Translations under genes and position numbers: made by a program
UHGV virus genome: UHGV-0060833
Length of the DNA stretch: 64,000 nucleotides
Origin: a virus
Reading direction: 5' to 3' (one strand)
Part shown: piece by piece, positions 30,559-33,027 of the stretch
Layout of the letters: each line of letters starts with the position of its first letter
Numbering within the stretch: the stretch's first letter is position 1
The notes under the pieces: generated by a model
What the model saw: only the letters and a program-made list of their open reading frames with translations
The model's database searches: none
Told to the model about the DNA's origin: nothing

Positions 30559-32819
30559 AAGAGCTGTGCTATGGATCTGTTTGCAGTGGAATTGAAGCCG
30601 CGAGTATTGCCTGGGAACCGTTGGGTATGCGTCCGGCGTGGTTTGCTGAAATCGAGCCTTTTCCATCTGCCGTTCTTGCGCACCGCTGGCCCCATGTCGC
30701 CAACCTTGGCGACATGACAAAACTTGCCAAAAAAGTCCTGGCTGGGGAAATCGAATCCCCTGATGTGCTCGTCGGGGGAACACCTTGTCAGGCATTCAGT
30801 ATCGCTGGATTACGTGGTGGGCTTGATGATGAGCGTGGCGCGCTAACTTTAAAGTATGTGGAGCTTGCAAATGCAATTGACGACAAACGGGCTGAGTCAT
30901 TTCTCAAACCAGCCGTTATCGTCTGGGAAAATGTCCCAGGAGTCTTGTCATCGGCAGATAACGCCTTCGGATGTTTCCTTGCCGGATTGGCTGGAGAAGA
31001 TGCGCCATTTGAACCAGGTGATCGACCTGAATCAGGAAAAAGTAACGCGTTCTGGCGGTGGGATGGCAAAACCGGTTGCCATGCTCCAAAGTGGCCGCAG
31101 TGTGGTTGTATTTATGGACCGCAGCGAAAGGTGGCCTGGAGAATCCTTGATGCCCAATACTTCGGAGTGGCACAACGACGCCGACGCGTGTTTGTTGTCG
31201 CAAGTGCTCGAACAGACCTCGATCCCGCAACGGTACTTTTTGAGTTCGAAGGCGTGCGCCGGGATATTGCGCCGAGCCGAAAAAAGAAGGAAATCGCTTC
31301 CGCCATTATTGCAAATGGCGCTGCAATCAGTGGCGAAAGCCTAAATCCATGCCTACATGCTGACATGCCACCCGGTATGAAATCGACGAAAGCCGTAAAC
31401 GCTTTCAGGATGGCAGCATTTGGGGAATATATTGACGATGAAACCGCATCGACAGTAAAGGCAAGAGATTTTAAAGATGCCACTGACCTTGCCGTTTTTA
31501 GCAGCACAGGAGCAGCTTTTTGGTCAGAAGGGCATGGTACATTGCGGGCACGTGAGCAAGAAAGCCATGAGCATCTTGTTACATTGGCTTTTCCTGAGCG
31601 TATGAGCGGTACACAACATGCTGCAACTAAGAATACTTCACCATCTCTAATGGCTAAAAATCCAACAGCTGTTTGCTATGAAGTAAGAAACGCAGAAGTA
31701 GCTGTCCGCCGTCTTACCCCTGTCGAATGTGAAAGGCTGCAAGGTTTTCCTGATGGGCATACGTTGATCCCGACGGAAAAGCGTAAAAAAGTTAGTTCAG
31801 ATGAACTGGCATATCTTCGCAATCACTATCCAGATTTAAGCGAAGAAGAGGCCGTGATGCTTGCAGCTGACGGACCGCGTTACAAAGCGATCGGCAATAG
31901 TATGGCAATACCAGTAATGCGCTGGATTGGCGATCGGATTACTAAGGCCGTATGTCGGCAGAAAGAAGGAAGTGAAACAAAAGAGCGAAAAGTTAAACCA
32001 GCGGCAGAATTCGAACGGTCCATATTCAAATGGGCTGGTGGAAAATTTGGTGTTCTGGAACAAATCTTTCGCTATTTGCCAGAAGGGAAGCGCCTGATTG
32101 AACCTTTCGTTGGTGGCGGAGCTGTCTTCATGAATGCCGGATACCAGGAAAATCTGCTAAATGATGTGAATGCTGACCTGATTAACTTTTACAAGACTCT
32201 GCAACGCGAGGCGCATTCACTTATCACTCTGGCACATCGTTTTTTCCTGGACTACAACACCCAGGAGGGATACTTGGCAGTACGGAATGCGTTTAACAAA
32301 CAAGTCTATGATGATTTACATCGCGCAGCGGCGTTTTTGTTCCTGAACCGACATTGTTTTAACGGATTGACGCGTTACAACCAGGCCGGTGAGTTCAATG
32401 TCGGTTATGGGAAGTATAAAACTCCGTATTTCCCATTACAGGAGATGGAAGCCTTCCTCGGTGCGGAAGGGCGGTCTGAGTTTGTATGCGGTGATTTTGC
32501 AGCGGTGATTGAAGCTGCCGGAGAAGGAGATGTCATCTTTTGCGATCCGCCGTATGAACCGCTCCCCAATACAGAGGGGTTCACGAACTATTCCGGTCAT
32601 GACTTTAAGTTTGAAGAGCAAAAACGCCTGGTGTCTCTGTTGACGGATGCTCATCGTCGAGGTGCAAAGGTTCTCATTACTAACAGTGGCGCGCCAAACA
32701 TCAGAGAGCTTTATCATGACAGTGGCTTCAGAGTGGAACCTCTTTTTGCCAGACGTTCTGTGTCTTGTAAGGGGGACACTCGAGGTGTAGCTCATGACGT
32801 TTTGGGTATATTGCTCTAA
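30555..32819 (+). CDS. dmt: Bifunctional DNA methyltransferase: N-terminal C5-cytosine domain, C-terminal Dam-like N6-adenine domain
   Basis: 754 aa; PCQ and ENV motifs in the N-terminal half; DPPY motif (FCDPPYEP) in the C-terminal half; GTG start overlapping the hrdC stop. Confidence 0.85.
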
Positions 32820-32826
32820 TAAATTA
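32810..32826 (+). promoter_or_regulatory. C1 operator-like site overlapping the dmt stop codon
   Basis: attgctctaataaatta, 16/17 match; followed by aattagtgtaat, giving a partly palindromic composite. Confidence 0.55.
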
Positions 32827-33000
32827 ATTAGTGTAATATCGCCTCAATGAATCGTGATTTATAGAGCGATTTAGCTGTTAGCCGCGACAGGCGCGGCGGT
32901 AAGCATGGCTGGGCCTAGTCCTCCCAGACAAACCACCGAGTTGCCAGGTTGACCATGCGCCTAAGTGGCAACGCCGAAGTGCGTTACGAGCTTCCAGTTT

Positions 33001-33027
33001 GCCCATCTTCGGGTGGGCGTTTTTTTC
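33001..33027 (+). terminator. Intrinsic terminator
   Basis: gcccatcttcgggtgggc hairpin followed by gttttttt. Confidence 0.6.

Follow-up and report, generated by a model that had tools for sequence, protein, structure and literature searches.

The ban-operon leader of phage P1 contains a conserved, pseudoknotted RNA domain shared with the 5' part of long DicF

Several kinds of small or folded phage RNA are already known. As described in a preprint (Ragunathan et al., bioRxiv 10.1101/2023.04.14.536235, citing Faubladier et al. 1990), the dicBF transcript of the Qin prophage gives a 190-nt DicF species with an RNase III-dependent 5' end and the 53-nt DicF, which is freed by RNase E, and Northern blots of Qin detected no transcripts past DicF. 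The putL and putR RNAs of HK022 are promoter-proximal folded RNAs upstream of early-operon terminators, with no dedicated protein. The P1 C4 and P4 CI RNAs (Rfam clan CL00128) are small, highly structured phage RNAs cut from a leader transcript, and the lambda 6S RNA and StxS, made at PR', are short RNAs terminated just past a phage promoter that serves a long operon. Here we describe an interval of the viral genome UHGV-0060833 that lies downstream of dmt at positions 32,810–33,027 of the analysed window (the whole stretch of 64,000 nt) and that is 99.2–99.6% identical to phage P1. It resembles each of these systems in part, most closely the long DicF RNA.

The operator Op72 and the ban promoter of P1 were mapped in the 1980s. 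The P1 region has carried the label 'dicF-like' since 2004 (Łobocka's annotation). The operator, the promoter and this loose label were thus already known; what is new is the recognition that, of the long DicF RNA, P1 has nothing but the 5' domain, which is conserved and pseudoknotted.

The relationship to DicF was apparent from a distant blastn search of 5426 complete E. coli genomes, in which positions 32,882–32,976 were about 77–79% identical to an unannotated chromosomal site. The homologous site of K-12 lies in Qin, between ydfC and dicB. The match between the P1 block and Qin had an E-value of about 1e-8 to 1e-11 and is independent of the covariance model used below, and a 701-nt query gave some match in 4269 of the 5426 genomes, mostly to the domain block. 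In the Qin locus (L002) the homologous block occupies 2501–2597, and DicF begins 25 nt downstream of it. Because the homology ends upstream of the true DicF, P1 shares the segment that precedes DicF and not DicF itself. The 'dicF-like region' that GenBank record AF234172 gives as a misc_feature at about 32,934–33,036 is misleading in this respect. A covariance model (R1) was built from P1-type and lambdoid copies, with P1 itself in the seed alignment. This model and blastn together delimit a conserved structured RNA domain of 118 nt on the plus strand (32,869–32,986), homologous to the 5' body of long DicF. Model R1 matched P1 over its full length with 92 bits (E about 1e-24), and this was its sole match, no second copy being found by R1 elsewhere in the 64-kb window.

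The domain is absent from Rfam. An Rfam covariance-model search of the interval, which the initial annotation had proposed as a check, gave nothing at gathering thresholds, and the DicF model (RF00039, gathering score 48 bits) gave no match at E <= 10 over 32,700–33,500; as a control, the true DicF of Qin scored 76.7 bits at L002 2622–2673. Neither ARAGORN nor Rfam made a tRNA or tmRNA call over 32,869–32,986. These results bear on the view that the interval encodes a true DicF-type base-pairing small RNA (sRNA) that inhibits ftsZ translation. The P1 interval does share with DicF its lambdoid genomic neighbourhood, its GenBank label and its form as a short RNA ended by a 3' Rho-independent terminator, of which the hairpin and U-tail would suit Hfq binding. 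However, no sequence or structure match to DicF was found, and no ftsZ-type seed was apparent, although no formal target prediction was made. The tail between domain and terminator in P1 is short and varies among copies, its 3' module has no relationship to the DicF variants, and the evaluated P1 fold (described below) contains no free seed region. We consider this explanation very improbable, and a DicF identity was rejected on the absence of an Rfam match and on the position of the homology upstream of DicF.

The 118-nt domain is composed of three helical elements on the plus strand, H1, H2 and H3, which are joined by a pseudoknot. H1 (32,882–32,896) pairs CCGCG with CGCGG around the loop ACAGG; it was paired in 96.8% of alignment cells and was found by RNAalifold. 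The hairpin that the initial annotation had noticed here is real (GCCGCG-ACAGG-CGCGGC, 32,881–32,897) and corresponds to H1, one helix of a fold of about 120 nt, with a 5-nt loop of ACAGG where ACAG had been read. The H2 arm (32,897–32,938) is formed by a base helix (32,897–32,900 with 32,935–32,938) and a variable top helix (32,909–32,927), and is supported by covariation: a U:A pair of the base is replaced by C:G in P7, and three pairs of the top helix show double changes. H3 (32,940–32,973), which carries a conserved 19-nt loop, GGUUGACCAUGCGCCUAAG, has four pairs with double changes and was paired in 96.4% of cells. The pseudoknot consists of 6 bp between the internal loop of H2, G[U/C]AUGG, and the loop of H3, CCAU[A/G]C. 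In the window these strands are GCAUGG (32,903–32,908) and CCAUGC (32,953–32,958), so that the pseudoknot spans 32,903–32,958; it was paired in 99.3% of cells. Its variable position is U:A in 64 copies, C:G in three (the P1 type) and U:G in two. The lambdoid copies and the E. fergusonii copy have in addition a closing stem, P0 (GUUGUGG/CCACAAC), and the lambdoid form of the domain has a cloverleaf-like four-way topology. H1, the H2 base, H2, H3 and the pseudoknot all form in the evaluated fold of P1.

The copies used for this analysis were gathered by a pattern scan of viral contigs and from P7 and the P1-like plasmids of E. albertii and E. fergusonii; a 19-base gapped pattern applied to genome contigs returned mostly chance matches. 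In a MAFFT alignment of 24 sequences, 91.7% of cells were paired, as compared to 31–55% in slid controls, and 11 compensatory pairs were present, a result reached by none of 500 shuffles. In a covariance-model alignment of 69 distinct copies, a type of alignment that leans to the model's own structure, 96.0% of cells were paired as compared to 31–58% in slid controls, and 12 pairs (39 cells) showed double changes; for all five measures, none of 500 shuffles reached the observed result. RNAalifold independently recovered H1, the H2 base, H2 and H3. The 69-copy alignment also revealed near-invariant unpaired bases within the fold. The covariation indicates that the pseudoknotted fold of about 120 nt is real and conserved.

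The position of the domain within a transcription unit was obtained from the curated P1 annotation, AF234172, mapped onto the window. The stop codon of dmt (32,817–32,819) is overlapped, as the initial annotation had seen, by a C1 operator, Op72a (Obana), ATTGCTCTAATAAATTA, at 32,810–32,826 of the plus strand, which departs from the consensus at one position. The operator is divalent, and its other half, Op72b (Obanb), lies on the minus strand at 32,821–32,837 with three mismatches. According to AF234172, Obanab (formerly Op72ab) 'controls expression of ban', and the promoters P1ban and P2ban, the latter a predicted promoter, overlap the operator pair. The C1 operator consensus was matched at 14 sites in the window, as compared to 0.3 expected by chance. 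The sigma-70 promoter P1ban (32,811–32,839, plus strand) has a -35 element TTGCTC (32,811–32,816), a 17-nt spacer and a -10 element TAATAT (32,834–32,839), and is too weak to have been detected in our consensus promoter scan. From the position of the -10 element, transcription is predicted to start at about 32,846.

An intrinsic terminator found by a terminator scan (33,001–33,026, plus strand) follows the domain. It has the form GCCCAUC-UUCG-GGUGGGC followed by G and U7, with a stem of 7–8 bp (33,000/33,001–33,018/33,019) that includes five G-C pairs, a UUCG loop and seven T's at 33,020–33,026. The strong terminator that had been described about 190 nt downstream of the operator is therefore present, with its stem at 33,001–33,018 and its T-run extending to 33,026. 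Terminator-like matches are no commoner in the region than in shuffled sequence (2 found, 2.2 expected); this terminator is kept in every P1-like relative, including the isolated P1-like phage D6, which is without the domain. The length of the T-run varies, with seven T's here, six in AF234172 and P7, and eight in one viral contig. The predicted P1 transcript (about 32,846–33,026, 181 nt) would be made up of a 5'-terminal hairpin, the domain and the terminator, with almost no unpaired tail and hence no DicF-style seed. The 5'-terminal hairpin (GAAUCG...CGAUUU; 32,849–32,872, plus strand) appears both in the minimum-free-energy (MFE) fold and in the evaluated fold, and is kept in P7 and E. albertii, where no covariation is available to assess it.

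The initial annotation had proposed, from the operator and terminator, a repressor-regulated small RNA or a structured leader. In this broad form the proposal holds, because repressor control at Op72ab/P1ban is documented, the structure covaries, and the Qin homolog forms the 5' body of a stable 190-nt RNA. The regulated unit was correctly assigned to repressor control; that its promoter is P1ban of the ban operon and that the region already bore the 'dicF-like' label had been missed.

The homologous block of Qin allowed us to compare the ends of the two RNAs. When 190 nt are counted back from the DicF terminator, the 5' end of the long DicF species falls at about L002 2487–2489; the model match starts at 2488 and P0 at 2490. 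In four lambdoid loci, the 25 nt that end in GUUGUGG pair with an upstream partner to give a spacer hairpin of about 22–25 bp, with a duplex energy of -30 to -34 kcal/mol as compared to -21 to -26 for shuffles, and with locus-specific compensations in the four loci. The 5' end of the 190-nt species lies in the 3' strand of the spacer hairpin (L002 2410–2497 in Qin). The most economical interpretation is an RNase III cut within this hairpin, which would free GUUGUGG to close the domain. A long-range duplex around the 190-nt unit, between the upstream flank and the sequence past the terminator, had energies no better than shuffles. The P1 RNA and long DicF are alike in their 5' approximately 120 nt (about 77–79% identity), with the same H1, H2, H3 and pseudoknot, and both are encoded in an early operon under a prophage repressor and ended by an intrinsic terminator. 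They differ in that P1 is without the DicF moiety, has another terminator hairpin and does not preserve P0, and in that the P1 5' end would come from a promoter about 25 nt upstream of the domain, whereas that of Qin would come from the RNase III cut of the spacer hairpin.

The reading that we favour, and to which we assign about an even chance, is that the interval is a gene, directly controlled by C1, for a discrete, stable, structured non-coding RNA some 180 nt long, which would represent in P1 the family of long-DicF 5' domains. When C1 leaves Op72ab, sigma-70 RNA polymerase would initiate at the documented promoter P1ban, probably near 32,846, and would transcribe the short 5' hairpin followed by the 118-nt domain, which, as the covariation shows, folds into H1, H2 and H3 and is locked by the pseudoknot. 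Most polymerases would then halt at the terminator (33,001–33,026), yielding a stable RNA that would be the counterpart of the 190-nt long DicF of Qin, and those that read through would continue into an SsrA-tag-like module, tRNA-Asn and tRNA-Thr, and then into tciABC and ban. In Qin-type prophages the 5' end of the domain would be cut from the spacer hairpin of about 22 bp, fitting the published RNase III dependence, and DicF is fused at the 3' side. In P1 the promoter would set the 5' end and no DicF-type seed is attached, so that any function would reside in the domain. Because the domain is shared between unrelated phages and has unpaired nucleotides that are nearly invariant, it may bind a conserved host factor in trans.

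A number of points weigh against this reading. Two conserved blocks of the domain were fixed by the pattern with which copies were collected, so their apparent invariance is inflated. For the P1 RNA in isolation, the consensus fold falls short of the thermodynamic optimum (its nested part has -46 kcal/mol, as compared to -64.8 kcal/mol for the MFE), and single-sequence folding was not significant when compared to shuffles (z = -0.96), so that support for the structure comes from covariation. P0 is not preserved in the P1-type copies: the P1 register retains five of eight pairs, three of them wobbles, and the weak alternative in P1 (AGCUGU/ACGAGCU) has no covariation by which to judge it. Furthermore, the covariation of P0 is not fully independent, since the spacer hairpin upstream makes use of the 5' strand of P0 as well. 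A literature search yielded no transcript mapping for this part of P1, the P1 transcriptome papers not covering the interval, and the transcription start and termination efficiency in P1 are deduced from sequence. No binding partner or target of the domain was identified.

The distribution of the domain provides a further means to assess its role. Besides the P1-like elements, the block is present in many lambdoid phages, namely mEp460, cdtI, Stx2c phages, Salmonella F1055 and Actinobacillus pPE4. In these phages it invariably comes directly after the repressor gene and opens the early operon that is transcribed leftward. In cdtI, for example, the order is the cI stop codon, a terminator, a promoter matching 11 of 12 positions, about 280 nt, the domain, a DicF-like terminator and the early-left genes. 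There is one copy per phage, with a single match per locus in about 95 loci whose flanks cover the PR side. All 51 of the 51 distinct downstream flanks, P1 included, have a G+C hairpin with a T-run within about 35–90 nt of the domain. These flanks derive from at least six different 3' modules, and conservation is higher in the 5' domain than in these modules, indicating that the domain is the constant partner. The state of D6, which retains the terminator and the downstream array without the domain, is more easily reconciled with an accessory RNA gene than with an essential device acting in cis.

Much of this pattern would also be expected of a put-like processive antiterminator, in which the nascent domain binds the polymerase and allows it to read through 33,001–33,026 and later terminators. 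In P1 this would let P1ban drive expression of the tRNAs, tciABC and ban, which lie about 2.5 kb farther downstream; in lambdoid phages it would serve dicB, kil and the recombination genes past the DicF terminator. In P1 the domain is preceded by an early promoter under repressor control and followed by a strong terminator, the lambdoid copies occupy the place expected of nutL or putL, as the order in cdtI shows, every copy has a terminator behind it, and the complex fold with its near-invariant unpaired bases would suit such a function. As with put, no dedicated protein was recognised nearby, no N-like Pfam family being found in the neighbouring open reading frames (ORFs). However, the HK022 genome gave no match by nhmmer or by model R1, and homology to HK022 put was rejected on these two results. 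The architecture differs as well, since put is built from two stem-loops (about 70 nt) and a triplex and is present as two copies per phage, putL plus putR, whereas the domain described here is single-copy with none on the PR side. Also against cis antitermination are the retention of the terminator without the domain in D6 and, in the Qin work cited above, the absence of detected transcripts past DicF on Northern blots and the excision of the lambdoid domain within a discrete stable RNA. We regard this mechanism as unlikely, although it is the main rival of the reading that we favour. A lambda-type nut site was rejected, as the boxA-like strings of lambdoid phages are arms of the spacer hairpin and are not found in P1, and no N family was recognised. 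The lambda 6S RNA and StxS differ from the P1 RNA in their Q-dependent read-through and in having no comparable conserved multi-helix domain.

A second alternative is that the domain is a passive 5' cap that sets the RNA ends and shields a 3' sRNA from 5'-end-dependent decay, the P1 copy being a leftover of a DicF locus. The lambdoid domain is always fused to a DicF-type sRNA, from which RNase E frees the 53-nt form, Łobocka's annotation calls the P1 region merely 'dicF-like', and the domain was lost from D6. A leftover cap would, however, have nothing to protect in the P1-type copies, which are almost without a single-stranded tail between domain and terminator, that tail not being conserved. 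Compensatory changes maintain the domain among P1, P7, E. albertii and E. fergusonii, and its greater conservation relative to the 3' modules also counts against this view. We consider a passive cap improbable.

P1 itself uses the C4 RNA, and the compact multi-helix fold and conserved loops of the domain could be taken to indicate a processed antisense immunity RNA of the C4/CI type whose loops pair with P1 targets. No Rfam C4-clan match was found in the interval, and the complement of the H3 loop matched, within the 64-kb window, only the H3 loop itself. The H3 loop is complementary to the domain's own internal loop, with which it forms the pseudoknot. The domain thus differs from C4 and CI in having no model match and no complementary targets found in the window; we judge a C4-like role to be very doubtful and, with no targets found there, rejected it. 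The P1 C4 RNA (12,646–12,731) and the a1/b1 target element (12,526–12,578) of immI, both known P1 features, matched Rfam at gathering scores and were the only C4-type matches in the window.

The interval had been described as holding no ORF with a ribosome-binding site, and no credible ORF was found. The only sizeable ORF (93 amino acids; 32,878–33,159, minus strand) exists as a 'hypothetical protein' in some records, those of phages JL22 and SJ46. Its frame is not kept among P1 isolates, P7 and E. albertii, which differ in length by 1 nt (the T-run has 6 or 7) and by 4 nt, and substitutions follow the RNA pairing. A minus-strand protein is the least credible of the explanations considered, and the ORF was rejected because of these frameshifting indels.

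A broader possibility, which we put forward tentatively and consider unlikely, is that the domain represents a new class of protein-independent regulatory RNA that P1-like phages have in common with lambdoid ones and that about three-quarters of the complete genomes of E. coli contain, acting either as a put-like antiterminator unrelated in sequence to put or as a tRNA-like decoy. The put-like version would let early operons carry a terminated sRNA gene without polarity, the decoy version would be part of a phage 'translation RNA' array together with the tRNAs and the SsrA-tag-like module, and either would give a function to the 5' two-thirds of the 190-nt DicF RNA. In P1 the domain stands alone: it is served by a repressible promoter, DicF is not attached to it, and the terminator comes immediately behind. 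P1 is thus a clean system in which to ask what long DicF is for, and whether the domain has an effect on termination, on RNA stability or on a host factor. The ban-operon leader can also be reframed as a stable-RNA array punctuated by long hairpins.

Downstream of the domain, the P1 leader continues with an SsrA-tag-like module, with tRNAs and other structured segments, and with four long hairpins whose arms are of one recurrent type. The order in AF234172 after the dicF-like region is tRNA-Asn, tRNA-Thr, plp and upl (minus strand), tciABC, tRNA-Ile and ban. The SsrA/tmRNA-tag-like module occupies 33,031–33,215, with a tag frame at 33,088–33,120 that reads GCA AAC GAT GAT CTG ATG ATG GTA GCG GCC TAA (ANDDLMMVAA*) and has no in-frame start codon after the upstream stop at 33,064. 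Homologs of the module encode 17 different tags, all of exactly 10 amino acids, such as ANDDVVLMAA, ANEEMYLAVA and ANDEQFLAVA. The tag of E. coli is ANDENYALAA, and all 17 module tags resemble it. The module was found in 293 phage records, apparently of P1-like, lambdoid, T1-, N4- and ViI-like groups, mostly directly upstream of tRNA genes, and was annotated in none of them. Rfam gave only sub-threshold matches of 24–40 bits to tmRNA_permuted, and ARAGORN found no tRNA-like domain in 54 loci. Two hairpins after the stop codon covary.

We also considered whether the module could be one piece of a two-piece tmRNA, with the domain or another locus as the acceptor piece; this was rejected, as no consistent complementary partner ending in NCC was found. 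The terminator hairpin was rejected as a general part of the module because two module copies, in L003 and L004, are without it. In the second of these loci (L004, Klebsiella plasmid CP027615), a T-arm-like match to the tmRNA model (4378–4394, 17 bits, model positions 347–363) lies about 300 nt downstream of the module and is followed by ...TCACTCTCCCA; a matching 5' acceptor strand was not found for it.

The four hairpins, each of about 20 bp and of one arm type, lie at 33,209–33,289, 33,648–33,728, 33,871–33,970 and 34,150–34,222. Their arms have the form CACAACAGGTAAGRGC..., a 40–55-nt loop and ...GCYCTTTCCKGTTGYGG, and the distal parts covary within each hairpin. In lambdoid contigs, arms of this type stand on either side of 'cargo' RNAs (tRNAs, the tag module and segments of other kinds) and of the lambdoid copies of the domain. 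These hairpins look like RNase III-type punctuation of a stable-RNA array. Direct repeats of 24–25 nt are present at 33,895–33,919 and 34,174–34,198 (GTAACGGG.TCATATCCCAATCTAC) and at 33,952–33,975 and 34,213–34,236 (...GTGGTGAATGC). They mark a recurrent cargo that is seen after the 5' arm in lambdoid contigs as GGTGAATGCG.... The annotated genes plp and upl (33,617–34,186, minus strand) lie opposite the hairpin-cargo array, and P7 annotates no coding sequence in the equivalent stretch. The tRNA-Asn (33,493–33,568) was assigned the anticodon ATT by ARAGORN here; the anticodon is GTT in D6 and other P1-like contigs, and AF234172 gives the codon as AAC.

D6-lineage elements (D6, L250 753–1500, and an E. 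fergusonii plasmid, L252 832–1620) are without dmt and the P1-type C1 operators at this position, and share a promoter-like site, TTGATT-17-TAGAAT, that precedes the terminator by about 700 nt. Of the two, D6 no longer has the domain, whereas the copy retained by the E. fergusonii plasmid is divergent and has a perfect closing stem of 11 bp. Elsewhere in the window, 12 further C1-operator-like sites with <=3 mismatches (at 12,449, 14,118, 29,288, 42,673, 46,297, 46,346, 48,439, 59,258, 61,018, 61,482, 61,565 and 63,601) are presumably other known C1 operators.

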